From Candidatus Rifleibacteriota bacterium (GTDB lineage: Bacteria; Muiribacteriota; Ozemobacteria; Ozemobacterales; Ozemobacteraceae), in the NCBI GenBank assembly GCA_024710355.1, contig JANJUX010000047.1, positions 2,542-66,541 on the forward strand: 64,000 nt of DNA, in the 5' to 3' direction. Both the position numbers and the translations under genes were made by a program. The notes under the pieces were generated by a model. That model saw only the letters and a list, made by a program, of their open reading frames with translations, searched no databases and was not told where the DNA came from. Of the stretch, positions 29,088 to 59,590 are shown piece after piece (within the stretch, counting starts at the first letter, position 1; each line of letters starts with the position of its first letter).

Positions 29088-29759
29088 TCAGTGGTCGATG
29101 CTGTGCCAGTAGGGGTTGTTGAGGTTCTGGTTGGCAACGGCGCTCGAAATTGTGGTGGTCAGTTCAAAAGAATTGCGGCCGCCGCCACTGTCTTTAGGGT
29201 CGGCGTCGATGGTCAGGGTTACGAGCAGCATCGGAATCTCGGGCTTGAGCGGGTGCCCGTAGAGTTCGAAGCGGGCGCCGCGGATATCGCTGAAAATCTT
29301 TTCGTTGCCGGCTTCGGTGCGCACCAGGCATTTTCGTTTATCGTCCATGGTGTAGTTTACTTCGCCGACTTTCGGAACCCCTGAAGTTTCAGGGGTATCG
29401 TAAAGATGCCGGAAAAAGTGAATTTCACCGTCAGAAACCAGAACCGGCACTGAATTGGCGTCTTTGTTGAACGTTTTCTTCTGAATTACCGGGTTGCGAA
29501 TTGCGTTTATCTTCTGGGCGAGCGTCGCATCTTTCGCGATGACCGGCGCCGCGCACCTGAAATCGCGGCGCAGATAGTTGATTGCGGTTCTCGCGCCCTG
29601 CAGTTCCTGCAGGTCGACCGAACCGCGACTGCGCTGCATGGTGATGTAGCTGAAAACCTTGTAAGACATGGTCAGCAGCGCCGAAACCAGCATCATGCCG
29701 ATCATGGCTTCGACGAGTGTGAAGCCAGAACATCGCCGTTTGTGCGCCTGTGTTTGCAT
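29088..29759 (-). CDS. Prepilin-type N-terminal methylation domain protein (PilW/GspJ-like)
   Basis: KRRCSG|FTLVEAMIGMMLVSALL; AINYLRRDFR motif. Confidence 0.85.
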   Translation of the reverse strand: MQTQAHKRRCSGFTLVEAMIGMMLVSALLTMSYKVFSYITMQRSRGSVDLQELQGARTAINYLRRDFRCAAPVIAKDATLAQKINAIRNPVIQKKTFNKDANSVPVLVSDGEIHFFRHLYDTPETSGVPKVGEVNYTMDDKRKCLVRTEAGNEKIFSDIRGARFELYGHPLKPEIPMLLVTLTIDADPKDSGGGRNSFELTTTISSAVANQNLNNPYWHSIDH

Positions 29760-30289
29760 CAGTATGGCTCACTTTCGTCGAAAAGCAGGGTCGCCAGTGA
29801 CAGTTTGCGCATGCGGTCGGGCTCGGCACCTATTGAATCGATCTTGTCCGGTGCTTTGCCCTCATTCCAGTAGACGTCGACCGCCACTTTGCGCAGAAAC
29901 CTCGCGCCGGGGCCGCTGCTGACCGGCTCAAATCTGATTTTGCGATAAAACCAGGCGTTATTGTATTGCTCGGGGTAGTTTTTCGTGGCCGGCTGCCAGA
30001 CCGAACTGGCGTGCATCGGTATTTTAACCGAATTGCCGGTGGCAGCATGGATCAGCGAGCCCTCGAACATCTGCAGGGTCGCCGGCGTCAGCTCAGACTG
30101 AGGTGTCGACTGAATCAGCTCGATGGTTTCCTGGGCGATCTGCAGGGCGCGCAGATAATTGCCGGCCTTGCTCGTTTCAACGCGGGTTGACGAAGCAAAA
30201 TAGATCAGGCCGCCAAAGAAAACGATGCTGACCGAAAGTGCGACAATGATTTCGACGAACGAAAAAGCCCGGCGCTGTATTTTAATCAT
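29759..30289 (-). CDS. Prepilin-like protein (PilV/GspI-like)
   Basis: QRRA|FSFVEIIVALSV; LRKVAVDVYW motif. Confidence 0.8.
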   Translation of the reverse strand: MIKIQRRAFSFVEIIVALSVSIVFFGGLIYFASSTRVETSKAGNYLRALQIAQETIELIQSTPQSELTPATLQMFEGSLIHAATGNSVKIPMHASSVWQPATKNYPEQYNNAWFYRKIRFEPVSSGPGARFLRKVAVDVYWNEGKAPDKIDSIGAEPDRMRKLSLATLLFDESEPY

Positions 30290-30792
30290 CAGCCACCCCC
30301 ATTCCCGCTGCCGGGAAACCCGTGTAGCGGAGGTGTTTCCGGTTCAGGGCCGGGTTCGCCGGCGGTTTTCGCCCGCTCTTTCGCAGCCCGGTCTTCGGCT
30401 TCCCGCAGTTCGCGGATTCTGGCGCTGGCCGCGCGTGTTACTTCCGGTGCCTGCGGCACCAGAAAATCGACCGGCAGCTTGTGAAAATCCAGTGCAAAAG
30501 GCTGATTGGCAGAGAAAAATTCGACCGGCAGGCTGTCGAATGATGGCTTGACCTGCTTGCCCGAGGCTTTGCGGGTGTCAAGCAAGCGATCGAGCTCGTT
30601 GTCTGAGACAGCATTGACCGGCCCGGCGGTATCGACCAGGCTGCGGTCGCCGGTTCCCTCATCGGTGGTCAGCGATCTGAGAATTTCGGGGGCCCGGCGC
30701 GAGATGTAGGGAGCGGCGATCACCAGTGTGATGAAGAATGAAATGCCCATCACCTTGAGAAACAGTGCGCGCAGTTGCCGGTTATTCAGCAT
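30289..30792 (-). CDS. Single-pass membrane hypothetical protein inside the pilin cassette
   Basis: MLNNRQLRALFLKVMGISFFITLVIAAPYI; overlaps both neighbours. Confidence 0.6.
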   Translation of the reverse strand: MLNNRQLRALFLKVMGISFFITLVIAAPYISRRAPEILRSLTTDEGTGDRSLVDTAGPVNAVSDNELDRLLDTRKASGKQVKPSFDSLPVEFFSANQPFALDFHKLPVDFLVPQAPEVTRAASARIRELREAEDRAAKERAKTAGEPGPEPETPPLHGFPGSGNGGG

Positions 30793-32968
30793 AGTAGTCG
30801 ACCGCCAGCAGTGATTTGTTCTCGCCGATACTGACCCTGACCGGGTAGTCAGGAAAATACAGATTCGCGTCGTGCGAAATCTTGAGATGACCGCCTTCAG
30901 GCATTTTGCGCAGGTCAAAAAGGCTGTCGACGATCAGGTTGCCGTGAATGTCGACGCTTTTCTCTTCGAACTCGATGCCGCCTTCGGCCGACGATGAAAC
31001 TGATGAATTGTCGCTGAAACAGGTGGTGGCAGCAAGTGAGGCATAGATTTTTGCGGTGCTTTCTGTGGTTTTGATGTAGAACCGGCCGCTCATCAGATAG
31101 ATGTTGAGACGATCTTTTTTGGGGTCGAGTGGGGCCAGGCTGCCGATGTGGCAGTGGCCATCGGCGAGCACGATGCGGCCCTTGCCGCGGTAGTGATTGA
31201 CGCCGCTGAGATTCAGGATTTTGCCGCCTGAATTGATGATCAGCATGACCCCGTCGAGGTCGATGATCTTTTTGCCGTCGATGTTTTTGACGCGGTCGTT
31301 GATGAACTGATCGGGGTTCTGATACGAGTGTGAAACGGTCTGCAGGCTTTCGTCGAAAGCCGGGAACACGTCATGCCCCTCGATACCGCTTTTTACCGCC
31401 GTTGGAGTTTTTGCGGGGGTAGTACCGGCGCCGAAAAAGAAATTGTTGATCGAGAAGTGCTCGACCGGCATCGACATCAGGCGGTCGGTGCGTTTATCGA
31501 CCGGCGGGTTCAGCTGTTTGCCTGAAAAGGTTTCGACCGGATTCTCGTAGTGCATCGGCACGACCGGAAAAGGCACATCGAGCGAGTAACCGCCGTGCAG
31601 ATTGAAGGCGACGTTTACCTGGTCGACGAAGGCGATTTTGAAGAAGCGCAGATGTACCGGCCCTTCGATATAAAGCGGGATATCACGGCCTTCACCAAAG
31701 AAAAGCGGCATTTTGCCGCCCCTGACCCGTTGCGGGTTGAAGGTTTTCATTTTATCGAAATATTCGATTATGCCAGAATATGGGTGTTCATCGGTGAAAG
31801 ATTTGCCGCCGCTGCCAAAAATGCTGGTGTAGTCAGAGTAGCCGTAGTGGTATTTCCAGTTGGCCATCAGCGAGCGCACCAGCGACCTGAAGACGTCGGA
31901 AGCGGCCGGGTTGCCACCTGATTTCTGGTAGTCTTTGGCGATTACGTAGGGCAGCGAACCTTCGTTGAGGTCGCCCTTATGCGAATTTACTATCGCTTTG
32001 TAGATCGAAACCAGCTCAGGGGTTTTGTGAAAATCAGAGGCCGGGTTGAAAGATCCTGAAATGGTCGAAAAGGGAAAAGGCGGGTTAACAAAGAACAGGT
32101 TGTTGGCGCTGGCGGCAGCGTGCTGGCTGCTGACCGTCTGAAAGGCGCCCGGCTGGTAGAAGCCGCCGAGCAGGCGTTTGTCTTCTTTGAAATCGAGGTC
32201 GAGAAGCACGGGCGGGGTCGGGTCACTCCTTGCCCCCTGCGGAAACTCGGGGCAGGTCGGGTAGGATCGGTTGCCAAGGTAGGCGAATGAGTATCGGGTC
32301 GGGTCGTCCGGTGTTACGCCCTGCACGATGATGCGCTTCTGCGGGCTGTTGAGCGTTTTGCAGTAGCTTTTAACGAACAGAGCATACTTATCGACGAATG
32401 GGTCGGCAAGGTCGACGATTTTAAGCTCGCGGCGTTCTTTCACCCTGATTTCGGCAGGGCTGTCCTTGTATTTTGCCCGGCCGGTCAGTTCGATGTGGCC
32501 GACATAAGATGGTCTTGCACCGTTAATGCGCTCTGTAACGACTATATTTACCTGCCCTGACACTTCGCCGTTCTTGCCGAGATATTCGTCGACGAGCTTG
32601 TTGGCCTGTTTCAGCTGTGCTGCCGCAAAATCGGCTTTATAAACCGACTTTGCGCCACCACCCGGCTTCGATTGCCAGAAACTGCGGATGCGCGAACCAA
32701 TTGAACTGTCGGGGTCGTTTACCTGAGCTTTGACGATGGCGAGCATTTCGTTGATACCGGCCTGAGCTAGCAGAACCACGCGCTCCTGATCTATCGTTCT
32801 GTTCAATTGCAATACCGCACCGCTTTTGTGCCGGCTGAGGCCAATAATCATAATCAGCATGACCAGCGCGAAAGTGATGACGAGAAAGAGAACGAAGCCT
32901 CGGCGCTGCTTTAAAACAGCGATTCGGGCTGGCCTCTGCCCCCTATGCTCTTTCTGAGGTATGTTCAT
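30782..32968 (-). CDS. Large PilX/GspK-like prepilin protein (728 aa)
   Basis: KQRRG|FVLFLVITFAL (no Glu5); LLAQAGINE; C-terminal beta-rich GNLIVDSL region. Confidence 0.75.
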   Translation of the reverse strand: MNIPQKEHRGQRPARIAVLKQRRGFVLFLVITFALVMLIMIIGLSRHKSGAVLQLNRTIDQERVVLLAQAGINEMLAIVKAQVNDPDSSIGSRIRSFWQSKPGGGAKSVYKADFAAAQLKQANKLVDEYLGKNGEVSGQVNIVVTERINGARPSYVGHIELTGRAKYKDSPAEIRVKERRELKIVDLADPFVDKYALFVKSYCKTLNSPQKRIIVQGVTPDDPTRYSFAYLGNRSYPTCPEFPQGARSDPTPPVLLDLDFKEDKRLLGGFYQPGAFQTVSSQHAAASANNLFFVNPPFPFSTISGSFNPASDFHKTPELVSIYKAIVNSHKGDLNEGSLPYVIAKDYQKSGGNPAASDVFRSLVRSLMANWKYHYGYSDYTSIFGSGGKSFTDEHPYSGIIEYFDKMKTFNPQRVRGGKMPLFFGEGRDIPLYIEGPVHLRFFKIAFVDQVNVAFNLHGGYSLDVPFPVVPMHYENPVETFSGKQLNPPVDKRTDRLMSMPVEHFSINNFFFGAGTTPAKTPTAVKSGIEGHDVFPAFDESLQTVSHSYQNPDQFINDRVKNIDGKKIIDLDGVMLIINSGGKILNLSGVNHYRGKGRIVLADGHCHIGSLAPLDPKKDRLNIYLMSGRFYIKTTESTAKIYASLAATTCFSDNSSVSSSAEGGIEFEEKSVDIHGNLIVDSLFDLRKMPEGGHLKISHDANLYFPDYPVRVSIGENKSLLAVDYYAE

Positions 32969-33103
32969 TCTCAGTTTTTGATTCCCGTAAAATTTTAGCC
33001 GGTTCTACGACCCCGGGTCCGGGTTTTCATGAACTCGACTATTTTGCAGTCATCGATCAAGATAACATTAAACCTTTGCCGGTGTCATTGCCCACGAACA
33101 GTT

Positions 33104-33163
33104 TCGCCCCGCACAACGCCATTTTGCGGCAGAAGCACGCAAAATGATGTTGCCACGGGGCGA
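33104..33163. other. Long imperfect hairpin between the secreted helical gene and the pilin cassette
   Basis: TCGCCCCG...CAAC..CATTTTGCG / CGCAAAATG..GTTG...CGGGGCGA arms. Confidence 0.6.
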
Positions 33164-33184
33164 GACTCTGGCTCTTAAAGAGGG

Positions 33185-34252
33185 TTAATCCCAGTTGAGG
33201 CCGGGCTGTGATTTGGCAGCCGGCAGCGGCGCGCTGTCGATTATTTCGTTGGTTGTATTGGCGGCTTCTGATTTGACCGGTTTGAAAATTTCACTGACGC
33301 CTCTTTTGATAATGGCTTTGGCGGCAGCATTGTTAGCCGAATTCGAAACAAGATTGCCGGCGCTGTCGACAATCATATCGTCAGCGGCGCCAACCAGGTT
33401 GTCTGCCATACCACCGGCAATGTTGCCGAGGCCTTTTGAGACCACGCGGTTGAGGGCTTCCTGGGCGGCGGCTTTGGTTGCCTCTTTGCCGGCTACAGCA
33501 AGGAACTGCTTGTCGTCAGTGATTGCCTTGTCGGCTGCGGTATTGAGAGTGTTGCCGGCTGCTTTGAGAATTGCAGCAGCAATACCGGTTGCGGTCGCGG
33601 CTTTGCCGGTGATTGCGGCGATCGGGCCGGCAATGGGAGCGGCGGGCGGAAAGGCGCAGATGGCGGTGCAGAGAAGACCGACGCTGCCCAGAACCATCGA
33701 TGCCGTTGACAGAGCGTTGGCTGCGTCAAGCAGAGCCTTGCCGGCTTCTTTGAGGGCTTTCTGGTAGATACCGAGGGCGCTGGCGTTTTCGTCGAGACTT
33801 TCATAGACTTTGGTCGGATCAGTGCTGGCCGCCTCTTTGAAAGACCCCTGCTTGAGCAGTTCCATGGTCTTTTTGGCGTCTTCCTGGATTTTTTTGATAT
33901 CTGCGTTGGCTTTTTCGATCTTCGGAACGTAGCGTTCGAGTTCCTGTTTTTCTTTCAGGGCTTTCTCTTCTTCTTCACTGCGGTCTTTGCCACCGAGCCA
34001 GGTCGGGCGGTTGGCCCAGGCATTCTTGATGTCATTGATGCGATTCAGGGTCCATTCAGAGATCTTGCCGAGCTCGATCGGTTTGATCGCCATGATTTCG
34101 TCATAGGTCTTCTGATAATCAGCTACCGCCTTTTCGATCTGTGCCTTCTGATTCTTGGCTTCCTGGGCGGCAACGATTGCCGGCGACATCAGCTGCACAA
34201 AAAACGTAAGCAGAACGAGCAATGCAACAAGTTTACGCGAGTACCTGTTCAT
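33185..34252 (-). CDS. Secreted helical protein with central hydrophobic hairpin
   Basis: Sec signal; coiled-coil N-half; uncharged Ala/Gly-rich run SMVLGSVGLLCTAICAFPPAAPIAGPIAAITG. Confidence 0.75.
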   Translation of the reverse strand: MNRYSRKLVALLVLLTFFVQLMSPAIVAAQEAKNQKAQIEKAVADYQKTYDEIMAIKPIELGKISEWTLNRINDIKNAWANRPTWLGGKDRSEEEEKALKEKQELERYVPKIEKANADIKKIQEDAKKTMELLKQGSFKEAASTDPTKVYESLDENASALGIYQKALKEAGKALLDAANALSTASMVLGSVGLLCTAICAFPPAAPIAGPIAAITGKAATATGIAAAILKAAGNTLNTAADKAITDDKQFLAVAGKEATKAAAQEALNRVVSKGLGNIAGGMADNLVGAADDMIVDSAGNLVSNSANNAAAKAIIKRGVSEIFKPVKSEAANTTNEIIDSAPLPAAKSQPGLNWD

Positions 34253-37583: not shown

Positions 37584-38480
37584 ATGAGCAGATTTGATTA
37601 TACCGCCGCCACCAGGCGCGAACTGGTCAGTCTTATTCGCAGCAATAAACTTTTCTGCTGTCAGCAGTCTTTCCTCGTCGGTCTGCTGCATGGCTCGCGC
37701 CTGACTCCATTCGCCCGTGCCCGCAAAAACCTGCGCCGGCGCCTGGCGAACTGCCTTCAGTCCATTCTCCCCGACAGTCAGAAAATTATCTGCCGGGGTG
37801 CCAGAATATGGTTGCCCGGTCTCGATCAGCTGTTTCTGCGCGAGAAATTTGTCGATCGCATGCGCATCGTTTCAGGGGCAAGTCGGGTAAGCCATTGTCA
37901 CGTGGCTTTTCTTCAGGGTCTCTTTGTCGCACATGGCTACATTCAGAGCCCGAGTCGCGGTTATCATCTCGAATTCCGTCTGCAGGGAAGCTGGCTGGCC
38001 GCGGCTTTCAGAAAAGTCGCTGCCGGTCTGCGCCTCAAATTCTGCTTCTATCAGCACGAACAATACAAAAGTTTTTACCTCAAAAGCGGCAGGCGCATTG
38101 CCAGGCTGCTGAACCTGCTGGGACTGTTCGAACGTGGGCTTGAATTTTCTGACCTTCTGGCAACGCGAAACCTGCTTTCACAGGTAAACCGCCAGGTCAA
38201 TTCAGAAACTGCCAATATCAACCGTCTGATCAATGCTGCTGAGTCTTCAATTGCTCACATTCGCGAACTGCTGACCTGGGAAGACCAGGAAATCTGGACG
38301 GAAAGCCTGCATCAGATGGCGCAGATGCGTCTCAGATACCCACACGACAGCATTGAAAGCCTCGGAAAAAGATTTGAGCCGCCCCTGACCAAATCAGCGG
38401 TCAACCATCGTCTGCGGCGCATTAAAGCGCTGCATGCCAAAATTTTCAGCCAGACAGTCGATCGCTCTCAGCCTTCGTGA
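37584..38480 (+). CDS. whiA: DNA-binding protein WhiA
   Basis: CCQQSFL, YHLEF, YLKSG, VNRQVNSETANI, C-terminal HTH LTKSAVNHRLRRI. Confidence 0.9.
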   Translation: MSRFDYTAATRRELVSLIRSNKLFCCQQSFLVGLLHGSRLTPFARARKNLRRRLANCLQSILPDSQKIICRGARIWLPGLDQLFLREKFVDRMRIVSGASRVSHCHVAFLQGLFVAHGYIQSPSRGYHLEFRLQGSWLAAAFRKVAAGLRLKFCFYQHEQYKSFYLKSGRRIARLLNLLGLFERGLEFSDLLATRNLLSQVNRQVNSETANINRLINAAESSIAHIRELLTWEDQEIWTESLHQMAQMRLRYPHDSIESLGKRFEPPLTKSAVNHRLRRIKALHAKIFSQTVDRSQPS

Positions 38481-40651
38481 ATTTTGCGGGAATAAAGCAG
38501 CAGAGCGGCAAAATTCAGCGACAGTATCAGACACAGCAGAGCGAAACAGTTCTGCATGCCAAAGGCCGGCAGCAGCCAGAGACCACTGAGAGTTCCGACC
38601 AGCATTGCGCCGGCGCTGTCAGAAAACAGCAGCAATCCGGCTGAATCGTGGGCCTGCCGACCGCTGCCCCGCAGTATGCTGTCGGCAACCGGAAACTCGA
38701 TGCCGTCGAGAAAAGCGATGAGAAAGACCATTGCCCCAACAACCGCTGCCGAGTGCAGGTTGTAGCGTTCGACGAACAATATGCCCAGACCGGTAAAAAC
38801 AATCTGCAGCAGCTTAACGTGCTTGAGCCTTCTGATGGCTTCTGGGCGGTGCTGCAGCCGGCCAAAGGTCATCGAACCAGTTGCCAGGCCAAGCATGTAG
38901 AGCCCGAAAAACAGCGCGGTCATCTGGTATGCAGCGCCATGGCGGTTTTGATAGAGCAAAATGAGAATTATTTCAGACAGCAAACCGGTTGCGCCGCTGG
39001 CGGCGACCCCGGCGGCAATGATACTGCGTGAAGCCAGAACCGGGCTGGCGACCAGCGGCAGCAACATCAAAAACAGGCCGAAACCTGTGCAGATGGCGAA
39101 CAGGTGGGTGCGGGATGTGTGTTGCAGAACGTGCAGCATACGGTTCAGTGAAGTGCCGCTGTAGATGTTCCAGAGTTCGAGCTGTTGCATGAAAGTACCG
39201 GGGCGGGCGTCGGTATTGAGATCGACTTTTACATCTTTCGCCAGCCATTGTTCGAGTTCTTTGACGCGAAAGGGCATCAGCAGATTATAAAAGCTCATCG
39301 GCATAAAGGTGGTCGTCTGAATGCCACGCCCGGCAAACCTCGTGGCCAGAACTTTGACATCAGTTGTGACCGGTGCCGGTGAGGCAAAAAAGGTAATGTT
39401 GCTGCCCGGAAAAGCGACGCAGTGAGCGAATTGCGCTTTCAGGGCCTGCCAGGTCGACAGCATAATTTTTTCTTTGATGTTGCCGAGGTAATTTTCGCTA
39501 CCCTCGACCTGCAGAGAAAGAACCCCGGTCGGCTTGAGCCGGCCCTGCATTGCCTTGAAGGCTTCGACGGTGAAAAGTCGGTTGCCTACAAGCGTTACCG
39601 GCGAGACCGGGCAGATCATGATACCGTCGAAAACCTCGTTTTCGTGGTTGAGGTACTGGCGTGGGTCAGTGATGATTATTCTGATCAACTGCCGCAGCTG
39701 ACTGTCGTAACCGAGCAGGTCGAAAAGTCTGCCGTCAGGCTCTACAACAGTAAGCCTCAGGTTCTGATATTTGAGAAATTCCCTGACGGTTTCAGCTGAT
39801 GGTGCACCAATGAGCAGAATATTGCCGGTTTCTGACAGAACTGTCGCAAAAGTGTGCACTCTGGCTTCGCTGCTTTCAGGGTTTGGCCATGAATCTGCGA
39901 GCATGCCATTTGAAAAGAGGCTTTTTTGCTCATGATAACCGGCAATCTGCAGCTTCTGATACGGTGTTTCTACAGTCTTTTCAAGGGTCAGCAACCCTTG
40001 CATGCGCTGCCACCAGGAGTTTTCGATTTTATGAGAAACCGATGGCCCAAAATGCCAGACTAGAGGCGCCAGCGTCAGAGTCAGCAGAGCTGGCAGCAAT
40101 TTTTTCCGGCTGATCAGTGTCTCTGCCGCGATTGGCAAGAGCGGCAGAGCAAGCAGGCAGAGAATCGAATCGGCGGTGCCGCCAAGCAGCAGCGAGAAAA
40201 AGACACCACCGGCAAAGCCACCAATCGCCTCAAGACTGTAAAAGTAGCCGAGGCTTTTATGCGAAAGTCTTATCAGACAAGGAATCAACATGCCGATCAG
40301 CAGAGAAACCGGGGTGACAGATGCAAGCATGAACAGAGCAACCGGCGCAAATGGCAGAAAACCGCCCTCCGGCGCCGGAACCATGTCGACACCATAGTAC
40401 AGTGCGCCAACTGACATGAGAGGCAGAACAAACAGTGCGGCGAGAAGCAGCCTCGGACTGATGCTGATTTTACCGCCAATGAAGCCGCCAATGGCGATTC
40501 CGAGCAGCCAGATACTCAAAAACAGCCCGAGATGAATTTCAGTGCCATAAAACTGGCCCATGAAAAACCTGAACAGGGCAACCTGGGCAATATTGGCGGT
40601 AAATCCGGTAAAAGCTGCAATCAGAGAAAGTTTATGAAGATGATGCAGCAT
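38468..40651 (-). CDS. Membrane-bound spermidine-synthase-like protein (fused MFS/SAM-dependent domain)
   Basis: About 7 N-terminal TM helices, ETPYQKLQI, central methyltransferase-like domain (DPRQYL, FTVEAF..M...L.P.G), NTDARP, further C-terminal TMs. Confidence 0.78.
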   Translation of the reverse strand: MLHHLHKLSLIAAFTGFTANIAQVALFRFFMGQFYGTEIHLGLFLSIWLLGIAIGGFIGGKISISPRLLLAALFVLPLMSVGALYYGVDMVPAPEGGFLPFAPVALFMLASVTPVSLLIGMLIPCLIRLSHKSLGYFYSLEAIGGFAGGVFFSLLLGGTADSILCLLALPLLPIAAETLISRKKLLPALLTLTLAPLVWHFGPSVSHKIENSWWQRMQGLLTLEKTVETPYQKLQIAGYHEQKSLFSNGMLADSWPNPESSEARVHTFATVLSETGNILLIGAPSAETVREFLKYQNLRLTVVEPDGRLFDLLGYDSQLRQLIRIIITDPRQYLNHENEVFDGIMICPVSPVTLVGNRLFTVEAFKAMQGRLKPTGVLSLQVEGSENYLGNIKEKIMLSTWQALKAQFAHCVAFPGSNITFFASPAPVTTDVKVLATRFAGRGIQTTTFMPMSFYNLLMPFRVKELEQWLAKDVKVDLNTDARPGTFMQQLELWNIYSGTSLNRMLHVLQHTSRTHLFAICTGFGLFLMLLPLVASPVLASRSIIAAGVAASGATGLLSEIILILLYQNRHGAAYQMTALFFGLYMLGLATGSMTFGRLQHRPEAIRRLKHVKLLQIVFTGLGILFVERYNLHSAAVVGAMVFLIAFLDGIEFPVADSILRGSGRQAHDSAGLLLFSDSAGAMLVGTLSGLWLLPAFGMQNCFALLCLILSLNFAALLLYSRKIHEG

Positions 40652-40652
40652 C

Positions 40653-41531
40653 TCAGTCGGTGAGGTGGCGGCCGGTTCTGGTGATTTTGCGGATCTGCTG
40701 CAGCTCTTTGCTTGCCGGCTGATCCTGAAAGTCGATGACGCTGCCGCGGCACTGAATTTCGATCGCTTCTTCGTTGTAGCGGCGCAGGCCCTGAATGGCC
40801 TTGATTTCGATCGCTTTGACCGAGTAATTCATTGTGTAAGGGTAGCCCTCGTCATTGATGCCCCAGCTTTGCTCGGTTTCCATGCCGGCCATTTTCTCGG
40901 TCTTCAGCATTGGCTGCAGAATCTGGCCGTCGACCAGATCATTGGTGCAGTCGCGGATAAAATACGAGAGAAATTTGCCGGGCGAATAGGCGTTGTTCTT
41001 GCTGTTATCGGGCGAAATGTATTTTTCAGGCAGCGCGCCCGGGGCCAGGCCGGGTGCCAGATAGCGGTAGTTCGGGTTATAAAAGCTGGCGAGGCGCAAC
41101 ATGGCTTCGGGTTCACTGCCGGCCATTTTTAGCGGAATGTAGAAAAATTTTACGCGGCCGCTGGCATCTGATTCGGCCGGGATAATGCGCTTATAAACGC
41201 CTGAATATGAGGGCAGTTCCTGGAAGGCCGGCTTGTTGTCGTCGGTTCTGAATGGGAACTCGGAAAAATCGAAATAGGGGTTCTTGCCCTGCATGAATTC
41301 AACCGCATCGTAGAGTTCAGTCGGAAAAAGCCTGGCTTTTAAGAGAAAATGCTGCATGGCGGCGCGCGCCGCAAAATAGGCCTGCTGGTCGCGCAGATTC
41401 AGCTTGTTGCGCCCGGCAACACTGCGGTGTTGAAAAGACATTGACGCAAAAAGCACCAGCAGCAGAACAGAAAAAATCAGCACGATGATAATCGCCATGC
41501 CTTCGCGGCGGTTTTGCTTTTTGTTAAACAT
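40653..41531 (-). CDS. PilX/GspK-like prepilin protein
   Basis: RREG|MAIIIVLIFSVLL; QAYFAARAAMQH. Confidence 0.72.
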   Translation of the reverse strand: MFNKKQNRREGMAIIIVLIFSVLLLVLFASMSFQHRSVAGRNKLNLRDQQAYFAARAAMQHFLLKARLFPTELYDAVEFMQGKNPYFDFSEFPFRTDDNKPAFQELPSYSGVYKRIIPAESDASGRVKFFYIPLKMAGSEPEAMLRLASFYNPNYRYLAPGLAPGALPEKYISPDNSKNNAYSPGKFLSYFIRDCTNDLVDGQILQPMLKTEKMAGMETEQSWGINDEGYPYTMNYSVKAIEIKAIQGLRRYNEEAIEIQCRGSVIDFQDQPASKELQQIRKITRTGRHLTD

Positions 41532-42468
41532 CGATATCAGCCTTGATGGTCATCAGATGAATGCGGCGCATGCCTGAGCCGGTCTTTTCGGGGTCTTTAA
41601 GGTTTGGTTTGTCGATGTTCCACTGCACTTCGATGATCAGGCGCTTCAGACCGCAATATTGAAAGTCGTCGTTGTTTGTATAGCTGACTTTGGTTTTGGC
41701 CATGCGCTGGGTCATGCGGGTCGCCGTGGGGTTTACGAACCTGAAGGCATCGGTCTGATACTTGTCATAACCCTGGTCGAGGTAGAAATTTTCGTGATTT
41801 TCCGAGACTTTGCCGGGCAGTTCGGTTTCGAACCTGAATTCTCCAGCCTTGGGAAGCATGCCGACCGGGTTGGGCAGGTAAACGCGCTGGTGCCAGCTCT
41901 GGCTCAGCAGCTTCGCCGGGTTTTTCAGGTAAGAAAAGGTGGGCTCGCCGGTGCCGATCGCTGCAAAGTCTTTTGGTGCTTTACCCGGGTAGTCGGTGCC
42001 GATCTGCTTTACAGGTGGTTTTTCATCTTTCGAGGCCGTGGGAGAGGTAATGTCTTCGACGCGCAAAGTAATTTTATAATACTGGCCGCGCGGGTCGTTG
42101 ATGACGTTCTGGCACGGATACCCGGCCGAGGTTTTTTCACTGCCCGGAAAAACCGTGTGAATGAACTTGGCGGCCCAGGCATCGTCAAAGCGTTCGTAGC
42201 CATCGACAGTTTTAAGGTCTTCGACTTTGATATAGGCCGGCACACCGGCGCGCAGCGCCTGAAACGGCACGTTATCGAGCATGGCATTGAGAATTTCTGA
42301 AGCCCGGCTGATCGCGAACATGCGCGAAACGTTAAAGTCAGTATCTGTGGCGCCTTTGCTCATGAAATAGAAGATGGGTACCATGGTTGCGGCGAGTATC
42401 GCCATGGCAAGAATGACTTCGATCAGCGTGAAGGCTGCAGATGATTGCTTTATTTTTTTTCCGGGCAT
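41524..42468 (-). CDS. Prepilin-like protein (PilV/GspI-like)
   Basis: SSAA|FTLIEVILAMAIL; GLKRLIIEVQW; LMTIKADI. Confidence 0.82.
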   Translation of the reverse strand: MPGKKIKQSSAAFTLIEVILAMAILAATMVPIFYFMSKGATDTDFNVSRMFAISRASEILNAMLDNVPFQALRAGVPAYIKVEDLKTVDGYERFDDAWAAKFIHTVFPGSEKTSAGYPCQNVINDPRGQYYKITLRVEDITSPTASKDEKPPVKQIGTDYPGKAPKDFAAIGTGEPTFSYLKNPAKLLSQSWHQRVYLPNPVGMLPKAGEFRFETELPGKVSENHENFYLDQGYDKYQTDAFRFVNPTATRMTQRMAKTKVSYTNNDDFQYCGLKRLIIEVQWNIDKPNLKDPEKTGSGMRRIHLMTIKADIDV

Positions 42469-45049: not shown

Positions 45050-46045
45050 TTACTTCATTCTGATCTGAACGGGGCCTTTTTCGGTGCCGACGAGCAGGTT
45101 GCCGCTTTCGTCGAGGGCGAGCGCCGTGATCTTGCTGCCCGGCAGCCCATCAGCTTCGTTGATAAGCTCTCCGGGTTCATCGATGCTCCAGAGCTGCAGG
45201 CCGACCGGACTGCCCAGCCAGACTCTATCGCCCTGACGCTGTAGAAAATTGACCGGAAGGGCTCTGATTCCTTCAGCCCGGCCGCGCAGCGACCATTTTT
45301 TGCCATCGAACAGAGCCAGTCCGCGACTGGTGCCGGCAACGACCATGTCGTCTATATAATCGCTGACGCTGAAGGCTTCGCGGGCCGGGAATTCGGGATA
45401 CAGCCAGGTATCGACATTGAGCTCGAAATTTGATTTCAGCTCGGTGCGGAGCCGCACAATACCGTTGGCGGTGCCGATCCACAGGTGGGTTTTCTGCATG
45501 AATGAACTTTGCAAAGCGTTTTCGAACAGGTGCAGCACCTTGTTGTATGATTTGAAAGTCGGATTTACCAGATATACCAGCCGCGAAAGGCCATGATATC
45601 TGTGACCGAACCAGATGTTCTCGTCGGGGTCTACATGGATATCGACGACTTCATTGTTCAGCAGTCCGACTGCATCTGGTTCACGAAATTTTTCCCATTT
45701 GCTGCCGTCGAATTTTAGAATGCCCAGGTCTTTCGAAGGCGCTGTCTGTGACACCCAGATATCTTCATTCACGATGCCGATGTCAGAGATGGTTCCTTCT
45801 TCTGCCAGAGGTGAATTGACTGGCGAGAATTCAATAACTTCGTCATTGGCTTTTTGAATGAACAGCCGGTGCTGAAATCCCCATGCTTTGATGCCATTGT
45901 TGCCGGCAACGGCGTAGACCTGGTTGTCCGCCGCTGATACAGGAAGCTTTACCGGCGTGATAATTATGTTGTCGGGTTTTTCAGCATGCGCCGGCAAACA
46001 TGTGATTAACACGAGATAAATCAGAGAAAGAATTTTCCGGTGCAT
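45050..46045 (-). CDS. Secreted beta-propeller protein (two-component regulator propeller-like repeats)
   Basis: Repeats such as LLNNEVVDIHVDPDENIWFG, LWIGTANG, LPGSKITALALDESGNLLVGT; signal peptide from the ATG at 46045. Confidence 0.78.
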   Translation of the reverse strand: MHRKILSLIYLVLITCLPAHAEKPDNIIITPVKLPVSAADNQVYAVAGNNGIKAWGFQHRLFIQKANDEVIEFSPVNSPLAEEGTISDIGIVNEDIWVSQTAPSKDLGILKFDGSKWEKFREPDAVGLLNNEVVDIHVDPDENIWFGHRYHGLSRLVYLVNPTFKSYNKVLHLFENALQSSFMQKTHLWIGTANGIVRLRTELKSNFELNVDTWLYPEFPAREAFSVSDYIDDMVVAGTSRGLALFDGKKWSLRGRAEGIRALPVNFLQRQGDRVWLGSPVGLQLWSIDEPGELINEADGLPGSKITALALDESGNLLVGTEKGPVQIRMK

Positions 46046-46119
46046 GGAACTTCTCCTGCGGGCGAAATAAAAAGCCTCTGTGGCGATTGTCGCCACAGAG
46101 GCTATCATGACATCAGGGG

Positions 46120-48798: not shown

Positions 48799-48825
48799 AA
48801 TTCCTCCTGATAAAACTGGGGATTT

Positions 48826-50463: not shown

Positions 50464-51401
50464 TGCTTTTGCTCCTCAAGACCATTCTCTGTGAATGACA
50501 TGGTGTGGATAAAGTTTCTTGCGTCATCAGATTTATATATTTTACCATCCGCTGTACCGACATAGAGAATTTTTTTTGTATCGACGGCAGCGCACTTGGC
50601 ATCATCGAATGGCACAGAAATTTCGGTCGCGTCGACATTTTTTATGCTCCAGAAGCCCAGATCACCGCCGGCGAGCACTGCACCGTCGTAAACCTGCAAA
50701 AAGTGCACCGGACCGATTGTGCCACTTATCTGGCGCGGGTAGCCATCGCCTTCTATGGCGAAAACGCCGCGGTCGGTGCTGCCCGCATAGAGAATGCCTT
50801 CGTGAAGCAGCAGACAGTTGACGGCCCGGCGCAATTCGGCCGCCTGCGGTCGCCAGGTGCCGCTCGCAACGTTGCGATAGAGACCGGTTGCAGTGCCAAG
50901 CCAGAGTTGATTCTGCCACTCGGCGATACTGTTGACCCAGGCAAGTTGCGAAGATTCGTCGACCTTCATCGGCCGCCAGGCATCAGCGTCGAGAAACGCG
51001 GTGCCACTGCCGACCGAGCCGATAAACACCCGGCCATCAGAAGTCTGTGTCAGCGCGTGCAGCTTTTCAAAACCAGTCGCCTGCTGTAATGGCTCGAAAT
51101 CGAGAGATTCGGTGTCGAGGCGCAGACAGCCGCCGCCTGCGGTGGCAATATAAAGTTTTTCGCCGTTCAGCATCAGATTATTGACCATGGGAAAAGGCTG
51201 CCCGTCTTTTTCGAACCGGCGCGGGCCGGCAGCATCGATCTGCCACAGACCTTTGCCGAAGGTAGCGACCCAGAGCCGCCCGTTCCCTTCGACTGCGAGA
51301 CTGCGGATCGTCGAGGCGTAGGCAGGCAGCTTCGCCTCGCCGGCACTGGCGAGCAGCGGCAGGCTCATTGCTAGCAACAGCAGCAGAAGTTTACGCAGCA
51401 T
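50460..51401 (-). CDS. Secreted beta-propeller protein
   Basis: Signal peptide; repeats LWVATFGKGL, LYIATAGGG, VFIGSVGSG, LWLGTATGL, LYAGSTDRGV. Confidence 0.8.
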   Translation of the reverse strand: MLRKLLLLLLAMSLPLLASAGEAKLPAYASTIRSLAVEGNGRLWVATFGKGLWQIDAAGPRRFEKDGQPFPMVNNLMLNGEKLYIATAGGGCLRLDTESLDFEPLQQATGFEKLHALTQTSDGRVFIGSVGSGTAFLDADAWRPMKVDESSQLAWVNSIAEWQNQLWLGTATGLYRNVASGTWRPQAAELRRAVNCLLLHEGILYAGSTDRGVFAIEGDGYPRQISGTIGPVHFLQVYDGAVLAGGDLGFWSIKNVDATEISVPFDDAKCAAVDTKKILYVGTADGKIYKSDDARNFIHTMSFTENGLEEQKQ

Positions 51402-55611: not shown

Positions 55612-55683
55612 CAGGGCTGAATTCCTGCGGCAGCTGCCTTAAACCGGGCTTTTCCTGATCAGCTTTTTCAAGCCGGAGAAATT

Positions 55684-56160
55684 ATGTTGGCAATCAGAAA
55701 CAGACAGGCTGCGGTTTCGCTTGTTGAGGTGCTGATTGCCCTCGCCATTCTTTCGACGCTGGCTTTGCCGATGCTGATGTTTCTTGTCGAATATTCGCGC
55801 GGCAGTTCGCAGCTCGGCGACTATTACCAGATTCTCAACATTGTCGAAGAAAAGCTCGATACGGCGCTGGCAATGAACTTCGTCGATCTTCCGACCGGTG
55901 AAACCGACGGCAAACTGGTCGAGGCCGAAAATTCGCGGCCGCTCGATCTGCGCCCGGCTCAGGTCGGGCACGAGATTGTCAAATTCAGAATGCGTGCCGA
56001 GATGGTGACGGTTGAGTTCGCGGCGATGAAAGACGCCACTTCCGGGCAGCTGCAGCGCGCCCGTGTCGAAGACGGCATGAAGCGCATCGAGATTACCGCT
56101 GAATGGGGCGACAAGAAAAAGCACAACATCAGCCTCATCGCTTACAAGGCCAACCTATGA
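55684..56160 (+). CDS. Prepilin-like protein (PilV/GspI-like)
   Basis: RQAA|VSLVEVLIALAIL; GMKRIEITAEW; LIAYKANL. Confidence 0.8.
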   Translation: MLAIRNRQAAVSLVEVLIALAILSTLALPMLMFLVEYSRGSSQLGDYYQILNIVEEKLDTALAMNFVDLPTGETDGKLVEAENSRPLDLRPAQVGHEIVKFRMRAEMVTVEFAAMKDATSGQLQRARVEDGMKRIEITAEWGDKKKHNISLIAYKANL

Positions 56161-56675
56161 CGCCAGCCACGCTGACAATTCAAAGTCAAGATTCCCATAT
56201 CTCTCGGTTCCTGAGCTTGCCGAAGGGCCGTCACGGTATCGCGATGCCGATTATCTTCGGGCTGGTTCTCTGTCTGGCAATCTGGGTGGCTTCGCTTTCC
56301 TGGACGATGACCAACAGTCGGGCGCGTTACCAGCAGGTATTGAAGGCCCGCAAAGCTTACTTTATGGCCCGCTCAGGCATGCAGCACCTTTTCCTGAAGC
56401 TCAAAACCATGCAGCGGCACTGCATCGAGGCCATGCAGTCGATCGAAAATGCCAATGATGACGAAAAAAAACTTCTTTATTCTGTCTTTATTGAGGATAT
56501 AATTGTACCACCCGATGATAGTTACACTGGCGAAAAGTATGAATATCGGGTAAATGAATTCAAGGTCGAGTCGATCGACCATGAAGAGTCGAAACTTACT
56601 CTGCAGGTCGGGGTTGAAGGCAGCTTCGGCGGGCAGAAGAACAGTATCAGCAGACTGATTCGCATAAGTCGATAG
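56157..56675 (+). CDS. Small PilX/GspK-like prepilin protein
   Basis: GRHG|IAMPIIFGLVLCL; KAYFMARSGMQH; ATGA-coupled to the previous gene. Confidence 0.72.
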   Translation: MTPATLTIQSQDSHISRFLSLPKGRHGIAMPIIFGLVLCLAIWVASLSWTMTNSRARYQQVLKARKAYFMARSGMQHLFLKLKTMQRHCIEAMQSIENANDDEKKLLYSVFIEDIIVPPDDSYTGEKYEYRVNEFKVESIDHEESKLTLQVGVEGSFGGQKNSISRLIRISR

Positions 56676-56700
56676 TCTGAACATTTCAGGAGGCATAACC

Positions 56701-57829
56701 GTGGAATACGAAGTCGTCGAAAAAATTCGAACGATGAAAACCCGGCTCTCCGGCATCGGGAGCCATCTTTGACCTGCCCAACAAAAGGCGGCAGATTGAA
56801 GAGCTTGAGTCAGCGACATTAAACCCCAATTTCTGGAACGACCGCAACAAGGCCCTGGCCACGAGCCAGAAGATCGCCGAACTCAAAAAGGCGTGCGATG
56901 CCTATGAGGCTGTCAATAAAGAATTTACAGACACAGTAGACCTGCTGGAGCTTGCCGAAGCCGAAAACGACGACGGCATGTTTTCTCAGCTGCTGAATCA
57001 GCTTGACCCGATTAACAGAACGATCGACAACCTTGAGCTGACCACCTTTCTCTCTGAACCATACGATGCTTCCGATGCCTATCTTTCGATCAAGCCCGGT
57101 GCCGGTGGCACCGAGTCGTCAGACTGGGCCTCGATGCTGCTGCGTATGTACCAGCGCTATCTCGATGCTTCCGATCTCAAATACGAGATTCTCGACCTCC
57201 AGGAAGAAGAACAGGGCATCAAGTCTGCAACGCTGCGCATTAAAGGCCAGTATGCCTACGGCTATCTGAAGGGCGAAAAGGGAGTGCACCGCCTGGTGCG
57301 CATTTCGCCGTTCGATTCGAACGCCCGCCGCCATACCAGCTTTACCGCGGTCGACGTCATGCCGATTCTGCCTGATGATGTCGACGTCGAAATCAAAGAA
57401 GACGACCTCAAGCTCGACTTCTTCAGAAGCTCGGGCGCCGGTGGCCAGCACGTTAACAAAACGAGCAGTGCCGTGCGCATCACGCATCTGCCGACCGGTA
57501 TCGTGGTTGCCTGTCAGATCGAGCGCAGTCAGCACCAGAACCGCGAAGTCGCTCTCGGCATGCTGAAAGCCAAGCTCTACGAACTGCAGCAGCAGGAAAA
57601 AAAGAAGGAACTGAAGAACATTTCGGGCGATATGAAAAATATTTCCTGGGGCAATCAGATCAGGTCCTACGTTTTCTGCCCTTATACTCTGGTCAAAGAC
57701 CTGCGCACCGGTCAGTCTACTTCCGATGTCCGCAAGGTCATGGATGGAGACCTTGAGCCCTTTATCAAGGCCTATCTTAACTGGCATGCCAACGGTGAAA
57801 AACCGTTGAATGTTGCCGACGCTGAATAA
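56701..57829 (+). CDS. prfB: Peptide chain release factor 2 with programmed +1 frameshift (join 56701-56769, 56771-57829)
   Basis: AGGAGG RBS, GTG start, 23 codons ending CTT-TGA-C, then the +1 frame continues into SPF, GGQ and WGNQIRSYV motifs. Confidence 0.95.
56758..56773 (+). other. RF2 +1 ribosomal frameshift site
   Basis: GGGAGC-CAT-CTT-TGA-C: internal SD-like element plus slippery CTT-TGA. Confidence 0.9.
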
Positions 57830-57841
57830 TGAGGTAAATCG

Positions 57842-59590
57842 ATGCCCGATGTAAGGAACCTGCTGACGCGCTGCCGCCGTGGCAGTGCCATATTCATGCT
57901 GCTGACGATTGTCGGCGTTCTTTACATTTTCGGCACGATGCTGATCAACTACATGACGCAGGAACGGGCGCAGACAGCCCGGCTCGGCGAGAGCATGCAG
58001 GCCTTCTACCTGGCAGAATCTGCGGTTGAAAAGGGCATGATCAAGATGCGCGAGCTTTTTTCGCAGAAACTGCTGACTGATGGCGGTGAAATCAACGATA
58101 AGATTCTCGCCCTGCTCGATATCGACAGGGCCGAGAACTTTTCGCTGCGCATCAAGATCAACGACGGCGAACTGATCACAGGCGGCAGCGCCGAAGTGCT
58201 CGTCGAAGTCAACAATCTGCGTCTTACCCCTTTCAAGACCTACATTGACGAATACGAGGAGGTGCCCGCGGCTCTCAAGGTCTACCGCAAAGAAAACCGC
58301 GACACCTATGCCGACAAGGCACTCGGCGGCTGGGAAGGCCTGCTGCGTTTCGAAGCCACCGGTCGTTACCGCAATGCCGAAAAGAAAATCGAGGTTATCC
58401 GCGAACTGAAGGTTACTGACCTGACGCCGCCGGCCGAGAACTACACTTTGTTTGTCTCGAACCGCAAGGATGAATATCTGCGCCACGGTGAGTTCAGATG
58501 CCGTAACTGGAGCGTTGTGCGCGAACTGAAGGCGCTGATAGATGATCTGGCTAAAAAGACCCGCGACGCTTTCCAGGAAACCCTCGGCAACACTGCCGGC
58601 GACTTCTTCTGGGAACCGAACATGGCCAGCAACGTCGGCTTTGAGGGCGATATGAAGATTCGCACCCTCAAGGTTATCCGCAAGCTGGTAATGTCGGTTT
58701 CTGACATCAAGATCAAGGATTTCGTCGACATTTCGATTCAGAAACTGCACCCCTATCTCTGGGGCAAGATTCGCACCAACGGCCGTCTGCACGTCTATCT
58801 GCCGTTTTTTGCCGCCGACGATATCATCAACTATTTCGAAGACAACTCGATCTTTTCGCATCAGCGCCCGGAAATCGGCTACCTGTTCTGCAGCAATCAG
58901 CTGCACGACCCGTATCTGAGCAAATATACCTATTATGAAGGCGAAATAATCAGGTATTATCAGAAGCTGAAGCCCTACGTGCTCGGCATTACCGAGACGC
59001 CGTACCCGAGTTCAGATCCTTACACGATGAATACCAAGTTCGACTTCGTTTCGCGCCACCCCGACAAGCTCGAACCAATGCAGCTCGACCGCATCAAGAA
59101 AGATGCGAAAGACTACTGCCACGAATTCATCGAACGCGATCTGACGCTGCAGGGCACCTATTCAAAGCCTGCATCGGTGTGGGGCCTGGTTTACGTTCAG
59201 GGCAACGTTTACATTGGCGGCCGTATCTCCGGGCAGGGCATGATCGTCACCGATGGCGACATTTTCATCACCGAGAACGTCGTGCACGACAGCGCCGCTT
59301 CTTTCCTGTCGCTCGTTTCGCTCAAAGGCACGGTGCGTCTTGCCAAGGGTCTGAACAATGCCAAGATCGAATCGGCGATCTACGCCAAAGAAAGTCTGCT
59401 CGGCGGTGAAGAAGTCAATATCTTCGGCAACCTCGTCGTCGATTCTCTCAACCGCCAGAAGGGCGAAGACGGCCCGCTGATCATGCCCAAGCGTGTGGTC
59501 ATCAACTACGATTCGAATCTGAAGGCTGAGGTCGGCAGCAACGTCTGCTTCAACATCTCTGATTTGATTACGACCCAGCGCGATCTTTAA
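57842..59590 (+). CDS. Large PilX/GspK-like prepilin protein (582 aa)
   Basis: CRRG|SAIFMLLTIVGV; QAFYLAESAVE; C-terminal beta-rich GNLVVDSL region. Confidence 0.75.
   Translation: MPDVRNLLTRCRRGSAIFMLLTIVGVLYIFGTMLINYMTQERAQTARLGESMQAFYLAESAVEKGMIKMRELFSQKLLTDGGEINDKILALLDIDRAENFSLRIKINDGELITGGSAEVLVEVNNLRLTPFKTYIDEYEEVPAALKVYRKENRDTYADKALGGWEGLLRFEATGRYRNAEKKIEVIRELKVTDLTPPAENYTLFVSNRKDEYLRHGEFRCRNWSVVRELKALIDDLAKKTRDAFQETLGNTAGDFFWEPNMASNVGFEGDMKIRTLKVIRKLVMSVSDIKIKDFVDISIQKLHPYLWGKIRTNGRLHVYLPFFAADDIINYFEDNSIFSHQRPEIGYLFCSNQLHDPYLSKYTYYEGEIIRYYQKLKPYVLGITETPYPSSDPYTMNTKFDFVSRHPDKLEPMQLDRIKKDAKDYCHEFIERDLTLQGTYSKPASVWGLVYVQGNVYIGGRISGQGMIVTDGDIFITENVVHDSAASFLSLVSLKGTVRLAKGLNNAKIESAIYAKESLLGGEEVNIFGNLVVDSLNRQKGEDGPLIMPKRVVINYDSNLKAEVGSNVCFNISDLITTQRDL

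Follow-up and report, generated by a model that had tools for sequence, protein, structure and literature searches.

What do the eight prepilin-like genes encode that lie scattered over a contig of an uncultured Candidatus Rifleibacteriota bacterium (Ozemobacteraceae) with no pilus motor gene among them? The question is raised by a stretch of 64,000 nucleotides (contig JANJUX010000047.1 of assembly GCA_024710355.1, positions 2,542 to 66,541; GC content of 0.52), referred to here as the window. A preliminary description had distributed these genes over four loci and had read them as a lineage-specific expansion of paralogous cassettes that provides interchangeable pilus tips for one shared machine. 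The best reading of the window is that it holds three clusters of non-canonical minor (pseudo)pilins of type IV filaments: Y1-K1-X1-I1-J1, I2-K2-M2, and secA-I3-K3-prfB-K4. On balance, we lean toward these being GspI/J/K-like sets that would be processed by a prepilin peptidase and would form initiation or cap complexes of a type II secretion system (T2SS)-type machine encoded elsewhere, with a large domain of K1 and K4 placed at the tip. A literature search found nothing on pili or secretion in Riflebacteria.

Gene Content of the Window and Prepilin Signals

All eight pilin-like genes (J1, I1, I2, I3, and K1–K4) are confirmed as open reading frames (ORFs) at the positions first assigned to them (Table 1), and the PilV-like and PilX-like motifs quoted for their products are all present. 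In a six-frame translation of the window, the class III motif [GAS]-h-x-h-h-E-h-h-h is found five times, once inside SecA and four times at gene N termini, those of J1, I1, I2, and I3, in which direct reading also recognizes a canonical prepilin signal with Glu5. The N termini of K1–K4 have a basic-Gly-hydrophobic organization without Glu5, followed ~45 residues downstream by an A-x-x-A-A/E-x-A/G-h motif. Class III signals had been assigned to all four loci; with Glu5, the assignment holds for J1, I1, I2, and I3 and not for K1–K4. Glu5 is also absent from GspK, PilX, and ComGG, and K1–K4, typed as GspK/PilX-like, resemble GspK and PilX both in an N terminus that lacks Glu5 and in the A-x-x-A motif.

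Scores for the Pfam N_methyl family (PF07963, gathering score of 21.2 bits) are above the gathering score for J1 (27.3 bits), I2 (23.0 bits), and I3 (27.8 bits) and below it for I1 (12.9 bits), with no match for any of K1–K4. The C-terminal motif of the I-type proteins, [KR][KR]-h-x-h-x-h-x-W, occurs five times in ~128,000 six-frame positions, and three of these occurrences are in I1, I2, and I3; the canonical GspI of Riflebacteria contains related strands (VRLTVEW and YSLTVTW). The original reading of the genes as prepilin- or pseudopilin-like is supported, with GspI-, GspJ-, and GspK/PilX-like types. The window was also correctly described as free of motor genes: signatures of T2SSE, T2SSF, and secretin are absent from it, as they are from the Pfam listings of called genes, which cover most of the window.

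The genes are packed in an operon-like manner. The start of K3 overlaps the stop of I3 (ATGA), K2 meets M2, and the junctions between J1, I1, X1, and K1 overlap or abut. Promoter and terminator scans gave counts equal to those of shuffled controls and are therefore uninformative on operon boundaries. The initial layout is revised in that the third and fourth loci are one cluster, the first locus comprises five genes, and I2-K2 is coupled to M2.

Table 1. Positions of the cassette genes and of related features outside the window
Feature	Position	Strand	Description
Y1	33185..34252	(-)	355-residue secreted coiled-coil/Ala-Gly-rich protein; first gene of the K1 operon
K1	30782..32968	(-)	728-residue GspK/PilX-like protein without Glu5 (RRG/FVLFLV)
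X1	30289..30792	(-)	Small protein with a single transmembrane segment; ORF extends to 30918, likely start is the Met at 30792
I1	29759..30289	(-)	176-residue GspI/PilV-like pseudopilin (RA/FSFVEIIVAL; C-terminal RKVAVDVYW)
J1	29088..29759	(-)	223-residue GspJ-like pseudopilin (SG/FTLVEAMIG)
I2	41524..42468	(-)	314-residue GspI/PilV-like pseudopilin (AA/FTLIEVILAM; KRLIIEVQW ... TIKADI)
K2	40653..41531	(-)	292-residue GspK-like protein without Glu5 (REG/MAIIIVL; AYFAARAAMQH)
M2	38468..40651	(-)	727-residue polytopic membrane protein, spermidine-synthase-like domain; directly adjoins K2 (1-nucleotide gap in the window)
I3	55684..56160	(+)	158-residue GspI/PilV-like pseudopilin (AA/VSLVEVLIAL; KRIEITAEW ... 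AYKANL); 73 nucleotides after secA
K3	56157..56675	(+)	172-residue short K2-type protein (RHG/IAMPIIF; AYFMARSGMQH); start overlaps the I3 stop; ORF back to 56103
K4	57842..59590	(+)	582-residue K1-type protein (RRGS/AIFMLL; AFYLAESAVE); starts 13 nucleotides after prfB
Peptidase_A24	L009 1336-2139 (~70.0-70.8 kb in window numbering)		Same contig as the window genes
Canonical gspG-H-I-J-K-L-M after gspF	L091 7104-11703; L097 12883-17958		

The Three Clusters and Their Relatives

Loci compared with the window are denoted by L numbers. The first cluster, Y1-K1-X1-I1-J1, is a five-gene operon that is kept as a unit in L003, L004, and L006 despite differing neighborhoods. In these loci, as in L013–L018, a homologue of Y1 (400–421 residues) lies immediately upstream of K1; L003, L004, and L006 also contain orthologues of I1 and, at the position of X1, a gene for 122–154 residues; among these, phmmer detects the one in L003 alone. 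Neither Y1 nor X1 belongs to a Pfam family. The 65 homologues of K1 are all annotated as "hypothetical", none has a Pfam domain, and all of those with an organism name are from Riflebacteria. A profile search with K1 returned 91 relatives among 1.84 billion representative proteins, and the single named distant one is likewise from Riflebacteria. In some genomes, the K1-type operon occurs twice, the second one with additional N_methyl genes in its vicinity, and a third type of large K gene is followed by I-like and J-like genes. A neighbor annotated as "ComGC_C" in L171 was considered as a pilin and rejected, since it is a lipoprotein. The surroundings of the K1-type operons in L003 (7212-22091), L004 (1-4753), and L006 (2375-7650 and 13701-16776) are varied: in one genome, the operon is inside a flagellar basal-body cluster (flgI ... 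flgH flgA flgG flgF), and in the others its neighbors are FecR genes, ECF sigma genes, and additional N_methyl cassettes.

The second cluster, I2-K2-M2, is one of a larger group. When species-representative genomes were scanned with the K2 alignment, 78 loci were found, almost all in metagenome-assembled genomes of Riflebacteria, the closest genome being Ca. Ozemobacteraceae isolate AMR_MDS_1066 (97% identity). Annotation of these loci with phmmer divides them into three paralogous types: type A, I2-K2-M2; type B, I2b-K2b-J2b-Z2b, in which J2b has an N_methyl signal and Z2b, at the cassette end, is a FecR-domain membrane protein; and type C, I-K-J. Orthologues of I2 lie upstream of K2 in 19 loci, and the paralogue I2b (39% identity) is found in ~45. 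K2 has 149 homologues, annotated as "hypothetical", and the named ones are from Riflebacteria or from a metagenome-assembled genome that is likely mislabeled; each genome in this survey has one K2 orthologue and one paralogue of ~44% identity. The I and K partners have diverged to similar degrees (I2/I2b, 39%; K2/K2b, 44%), which indicates that the I-K pair was duplicated together. Types A and B are both present in genomes of the window's clade, including its closest relatives (L056 and L060). The I2b-K2b cassettes lie outside the window, and these and further large-K cassettes are also found in other Riflebacteria. M2 is downstream of K2, with abutting or overlapping coding sequences, in all 17 type A loci long enough to show it. 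In the window copy of M2, the Spermine_synth match is weak (19.2 bits, cut-off of 22.9 bits); that of the L029 orthologue is clear (E of 8.5e-11).

In the third cluster, the gene order is secA, 73 nucleotides, I3, an ATGA overlap, K3, prfB, 13 nucleotides, and K4. Since prfB alone separates the two loci previously distinguished here, they constitute one cluster. The order hpf-ptsN-secA-I3-K3-prfB-K4 is identical in a complete 5.2-Mb genome (L002), where SecA is 76% and I3 63% identical to the window proteins; I3 has the same position in L009 as well, where K3 is called as a gene for 172 residues. K4 has 152 "hypothetical" homologues (40–100% identity), and, as for K1, neither these nor the K2 homologues contain a Pfam domain above threshold. 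Apart from the likely mislabeled K2 entry, organism names attached to homologues of the large cassette proteins are Candidatus Riflebacteria, Rifleibacterium, or Ozemobacteraceae. At least one set, I3-K3-K4, is packed, and probably co-transcribed, with secA and prfB, and this embedding is seen in every genome examined. The prfB gene itself (release factor 2, RF2; 56700-57829, plus strand) starts directly at, or inside, the end of K3 and contains, at 56767, the classical CTT TGA C site of programmed +1 frameshifting.

Peptidase and Motor Genes outside the Window

On L009, a contig with genes identical to the window's, a prepilin peptidase gene (Peptidase_A24, 267 residues) is flanked by secG and an arginase gene ~6 kb past the right window end. 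The left extension of the contig contains nothing relevant, and genes for an ATPase, platform protein, or secretin are absent from the parts of L009 and L011 that reach ~8 and ~7 kb, respectively, past the window ends. Among 1.5 Mb of Riflebacteria loci, a T2SSE signature is observed only in L029, which is also the only one of the 78 K2-type loci (1.3 Mb) with an ATPase. In L029, genes for a secretin, GspE (MshEN and T2SSE domains), and GspF are directly upstream of hprK-cofD-whiA, 5.4 kb from I2-K2-M2. The loci of K1, K4, K2b, and L171 contain no ATPase.

When GspE of L029 was used as a metagenome query, ten Riflebacteria orthologues were obtained. In L094 and L096, the order gspC-like-D-E-F is followed by a gene for a secreted phospholipase C (PLC)/nuclease-HHH protein, and in L093 and L095, the 5′ ends of which are cut, the same genes are present from gspD or gspE onward. 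These four contigs belong to the window's clade, and in all four the PLC/HHH gene, rather than gspG-M, follows gspF. In contrast, L091 and L097, from other Riflebacteria, contain the full canonical gspC-D-E-F-G-H-I-J-K-L-M operon; the window's clade lacks the G-M module at that position. The tetranucleotide composition of L094 and L096 matches that of the window (r = 0.98), which is as high as in same-genome controls, and L096 and L009 are from one metagenome. The composition-matched contigs contain one gspC-like-D-E-F cluster; no major pilin was found on the contigs scanned, and neither PilT nor PilMNOP was seen. A second ATPase locus of matching composition is not among the best 80 of 477 metagenome ATPase matches.

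The gene after gspF (L096 9125-10150; also in L093, L094, and L095) encodes a secreted protein in which a Zn-dependent phospholipase C/S1-P1 nuclease-like domain is fused to a ComEA-type HHH_3 domain. This protein could be a T2SS substrate or could have a DNA-related function.

Structure Models and Tests against Known Families

The AlphaFold2 (AF2) model of K1, with a predicted local distance difference test score (pLDDT) of 85 and a predicted TM-score (pTM) of 0.79, begins with a long N-terminal helix of 66 residues (18–83) and antiparallel strands (107–186). These are followed by ~500 residues with no fold match in the PDB, a large mixed domain that ends in short, beta-helix-like strands. 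The K2 model (pLDDT of 75) contains a broken long helix (9–80) followed by sheets. As modeled, the N-terminal architecture of K1 and K2 appears pilin-like and the remainder novel. A ComZ-, PilY1-, or GspK-like fold had been expected for the K proteins and is supported neither by Foldseek nor by profile searches of the PDB.

Matches to known families are weak and mostly N-terminal. For GspI (TIGR01707, cut-off of 44.35 bits), I2 scores 18.3 and I3 20.1 bits over the N-terminal 45–55 residues only, and I1 has no match; comparison of the I-type proteins with canonical GspI by hhalign gives 83% over 49 columns. J1 scores 16.1 and 21.2 bits against GspJ models with cut-offs of 64.85 (TIGR01711) and 295 bits (NF006453). 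For GspK (NF037980, cut-off of 130 bits), K2 scores 20.9 and K3 12.2 bits at the N terminus only, and K1 and K4 do not match; a weak NCBIfam GspK match, also restricted to the N terminus, occurs in 25 of 36 K2-family members, and ComGG-like weak matches occur in six. No T2SSK domain (PF03934) is found in the K proteins. PilX_N (PF14341) does not match the window K4 at E ≤ 1 and matches five of 33 K4 orthologues weakly (best E of 2e-4), one of which is so named by NCBI. ComGE-like weak matches are found for I1, I3, and J1. Because every membership cut-off tested among these NCBIfam models was failed, the window proteins are analogues or distant relatives rather than members. That they are relocated canonical gspI/J/K genes is rejected at the sequence level: phmmer detects no similarity to GspI/J/K of L091 and L097, and the similarity found by hhalign is confined to the helix for all but J1.

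Relatedness of the Cassettes, Conservation, and Selection

An all-against-all BLASTP comparison of the window proteins gave marginal matches, mostly in the N-terminal helix (K2-K3, E of 4e-9 over 76 residues; I2-I3, 3.5e-5; I1-I3, 4e-4; K1-K4, 0.015). In hhalign comparisons, K1 and K4 are full-length homologues (probability of 95.7%, E of 8e-9, 505 columns), and the K2 family matches K3 at 97.4% over 72 columns. Matches among the I families, and between them and canonical GspI, span 49–65 N-terminal columns only, as in the comparison of I1 with the I2 family (93.5%, N-terminal 54 columns only). J1 matches the J2b family at 96.6% and, over 115 columns and thus beyond the helix, the canonical Riflebacteria GspJ at 84.6%. 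Judged by these alignments, similarity between loci is mostly confined to the N-terminal helix, with full-length homology for K1/K4 only. The term "paralogous family" therefore fits K1/K4 and, in part, over the N-terminal ~75 residues, K2/K3; the remaining similarity is no more than type IV pilin-like proteins in general have in common. The cassettes also differ in their contents (I-K-M2, I-K-J-FecR, I-K-J, Y-K-X-I-J, and I-K...K) and are therefore not equivalent modules.

The cassette genes are real and under strong purifying selection. Identities to the distant complete genome are 74% for K4, 70% for K2, 67% for I2, 63% for I3, and 62% for K3, compared with 76% for SecA, 81% for RF2, and 44% for WhiA. 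Ratios of nonsynonymous to synonymous substitution rates (dN/dS) relative to a close relative (dS of ~0.5) are 0.019 for I2, 0.052 for K2, 0.040 for K1, 0.027 for Y1, and 0.070 for M2; those of neighboring housekeeping genes are 0.005–0.06. Throughout Riflebacteria, each cassette gene is represented by one conserved orthologue, with synteny kept across distant genomes, and the sets belong to the ancient core genes of the phylum and have been inherited vertically. The proposed lineage-specific expansion is contradicted by this pattern: one-to-one orthology across the phylum places the duplications far back, and there is no recent expansion among the four loci.

Other Features of the Window

A block at 45050-51401 (minus strand) encodes two Reg_prop beta-propeller proteins, an 892-residue protein without a Pfam domain, and a 545-residue TPR protein; its synteny with hpf-ptsN-secA extends as far as the distant complete genome (L002, L028). 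At 16776-22232 (minus strand), an 1818-residue secreted protein with two VWA domains is encoded, followed at 15770-16762 (minus strand) by a 330-residue coiled-coil protein; both are unrelated to the pilin cassettes. Between an ABC permease gene and the gene of a 308-residue secreted protein, a pair comprising a ParD-like antitoxin and a PemK/MazF-like toxin is found (~60450-61100, minus strand), which is also called in L009 and L010.

Comparison with Known Systems

The functionally closest systems are the GspHIJK tip of the T2SS and the FimU-PilVWX-PilY1 priming complex of type IVa pili (T4aP). The GspI-GspJ-GspK tip complex of enterotoxigenic Escherichia coli (with GspH) was reportedly described by Korotkov and Hol in 2008. 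Similar to GspIJK, the window sets have a small GspI-like subunit with an LxEVLxA N terminus and a C-terminal V-x-V-x-W strand, and a GspJ-like subunit together with a Glu5-less partner that would cap the filament. Dependence on a GspDEF-type machine and a prepilin peptidase would be shared as well, and the window's clade has both. The main differences are that the window genes lie off the gsp operon, scattered and in several sets per genome; that K1 and K4 exceed GspK two- to threefold in size and carry a domain without a known fold; and that a T2SSK domain, a fold match, and scores above the model cut-offs are all lacking.

In Myxococcus xanthus, three alternative minor-pilin clusters serve one machine and one major pilin (PMC7541494). 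Similar to the sets of the window, these clusters lie apart from the core machine and combine a PilX-type member with a large non-pilin or tip protein. Unlike those of the window, they are equivalent five-gene sets with recognizable Pfam domains and a PilY1 beta-propeller, whereas the window sets are heterogeneous, lack a PilY1 domain, and match PilX_N only marginally; in addition, the sole machine found in the window's clade is T2SS-like (gspC-like-D-E-F).

Cassettes of prepilin-type proteins are also represented by the Verru_Chthon models (TIGR02596/02598/02599/02600) and by those for cyanobacterial HpsA-D (NF03830x). As their descriptions show, these cassettes are multi-copy or stand-alone and consist of one large protein and two or three prepilin-type proteins, with the motor genes distant, which is reminiscent of the window. 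They differ in phylum and gene content, and the similarity is essentially N-terminal, with scores far below the cut-offs: the best NCBIfam matches of J1 are HpsC (24.2 bits, cut-off of 200 bits) and Verru_Chthon protein C (TIGR02599; 17.0 bits, cut-off of 256.5 bits), and I2 scores 13.5 bits in the same test. No paper mentioning Verru_Chthon cassettes was found in the literature. The competence systems offer further parallels. ComGD-ComGG includes a Glu5-less minor pilin, and a ComEA-type HHH protein follows gspF in the window's clade; in the Thermus PilA2/ComZ system, ComZ sets the precedent of a pilin-like tip protein that carries a large domain. Neither shows significant sequence or fold similarity to the window proteins, and an operon of the comGA/GB type was not seen.

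Discussion

The reading that we favor on balance is as follows. The prepilin peptidase whose gene lies ~6 kb past the right window end would cleave and N-methylate I1, I2, I3, and J1. With their Glu5-less K partners, these proteins would form GspI/J/K-like initiation or cap complexes, which would top a (pseudo)pilus built by the T2SS-type secretin-ATPase-platform machine (gspC-like-D-E-F) elsewhere in the genome, and the ~500 extra residues of K1 and K4 would be displayed at the filament tip. The combination of several cassettes without a motor of their own, a peptidase, and a gspC-like-D-E-F cluster free of pseudopilin genes fits several sets that feed a machine encoded elsewhere.

Several observations weigh against this reading. 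Foldseek comparison of the K1 and K2 models with the PDB gave nothing below an E of 0.16, and no pilin, GspK, PilX, PilY1, or ComZ; sequence and profile searches of the PDB with J1, I3, and the alignments of K1, K2, and K4 gave nothing significant. The window proteins all score below the NCBIfam cut-offs of GspI, GspJ, and GspK, and phmmer links none of them to the canonical proteins of other Riflebacteria. The neighboring genes (the spermidine-synthase-like membrane protein, FecR proteins, and secA/prfB) are atypical for pilus tip genes. The contigs L094 and L096 are assigned to the window's organism by composition and a shared metagenome, not by physical linkage, and the best 80 of 477 ATPase matches leave room for a possible second machine of the PilB/PilT type. 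Neither a GspG-like major pseudopilin nor GspL/M turned up for the window's clade on the contigs scanned.

The atypical neighbors lend themselves to another explanation, in which the proteins are not filament subunits at all. They would instead be bitopic proteins of the envelope, their prepilin-like or signal-anchor N terminus serving only for membrane insertion or sorting, with roles in sensing or in the biogenesis of the envelope, for instance together with M2, FecR-domain proteins, or Sec. Many N_methyl proteins of bacteria of the Planctomycetes-Verrucomicrobia-Chlamydiae group use a prepilin-like N terminus in this way. The K proteins lack both Glu5 and a pilin-fold match, the neighbors are housekeeping and envelope genes (secA, prfB, lgt, M2, FecR, and ECF sigma), no motor is adjacent, and the very high conservation is typical of core functions. 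We consider this explanation unlikely, yet a genuine alternative. Against it, four of the proteins have the complete class III motif, and Glu5 is required for filament assembly rather than for anchoring. The recurring grouping of I and K (and J) mirrors GspI-J-K and PilV-W-X, the C-terminal strands of the I type are like those of canonical GspI, and the clade has both a prepilin peptidase and a GspDEF machine. A complete T2SS or type IV pilus system beside each cassette is highly improbable. L029, in which secretin, GspE, and GspF lie 5.4 kb from the cassette, could be taken to indicate such an arrangement, but this distant locus is alone among the 78 K2-type loci in having an ATPase, separated from the cassette by hprK-cofD-whiA, and neither the window with its extensions nor the K1, K4, K2b, and L171 loci contain motor genes; the own-motor alternative is largely refuted.

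Interchangeable tips on one shared machine, with binding specificities for prey, host, or particles that arose by lineage-specific expansion, would account for genomes with several cassettes, which come in I-K types A, B, and C and in at least three large-K types, for the joint duplication of I/K partners, and for genomes with two K1-type operons. A motor cluster without pseudopilin genes of its own and the precedent of M. xanthus (PMC7541494) also agree with this proposal. Its several motor-less cassettes are borne out, and the peptidase outside the window, the single gspC-like-D-E-F cluster, and the I2b-K2b paralogues lend it partial support. Interchangeability is distinctly unlikely: the window cassettes are one-to-one orthologues across the phylum, so that their duplications are old; their gene contents are unequal; and apart from K1/K4, the globular domains are unrelated between loci. 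Moreover, dN/dS values of 0.02–0.07 and SecA-like conservation, with no sign of diversification, together with one set embedded in hpf-ptsN-secA-prfB in every genome examined, point to a core conserved role rather than to fast-evolving recognition tips. Antiquity, purifying selection, and packing with secA and prfB argue for specialized, non-redundant components and not for a recently expanded interchangeable repertoire.

A more far-reaching reading concerns the Rifleibacterium-like clade as a whole. Its T2SS operon may have shed gspG-M, with initiation taken over by dispersed, phylum-specific sets whose caps would be K1/K4 (580–730 residues) and K2/K3, without a solved relative, one set being hard-wired in the hpf-ptsN-secA-prfB operon. 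We regard this as rather unlikely; if it were true, the clade would have a filament, on the surface or in the periplasm, that is made constitutively, is close to essential, and ends in a tip of a new kind, with a possible link to the spermidine-synthase-like membrane enzyme.

The cassettes had been put forward as an undescribed system, which is an overstatement; multiple minor-pilin sets per machine are established in M. xanthus (PMC7541494), and current models are therefore not overturned. What is new are the protein families, their unusual genomic embedding, and the stripped motor operon of the clade. If the reading as GspI/J/K-like sets feeding a T2SS-type machine is correct, it would extend the idea of minor-pilin priming and tip complexes to a poorly known, uncultured phylum of diderm Terrabacteria. 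No fewer than two protein families would be defined by it, K1/K4 and K2/K3, the members of which are now "hypothetical", without a Pfam match above threshold or a structural relative, and it would provide a case in which pseudopilin genes are split from a stripped gspDEF core and embedded in housekeeping operons. Such knowledge would be of use in annotating type IV filaments in metagenomes and in choosing targets for structural genomics.

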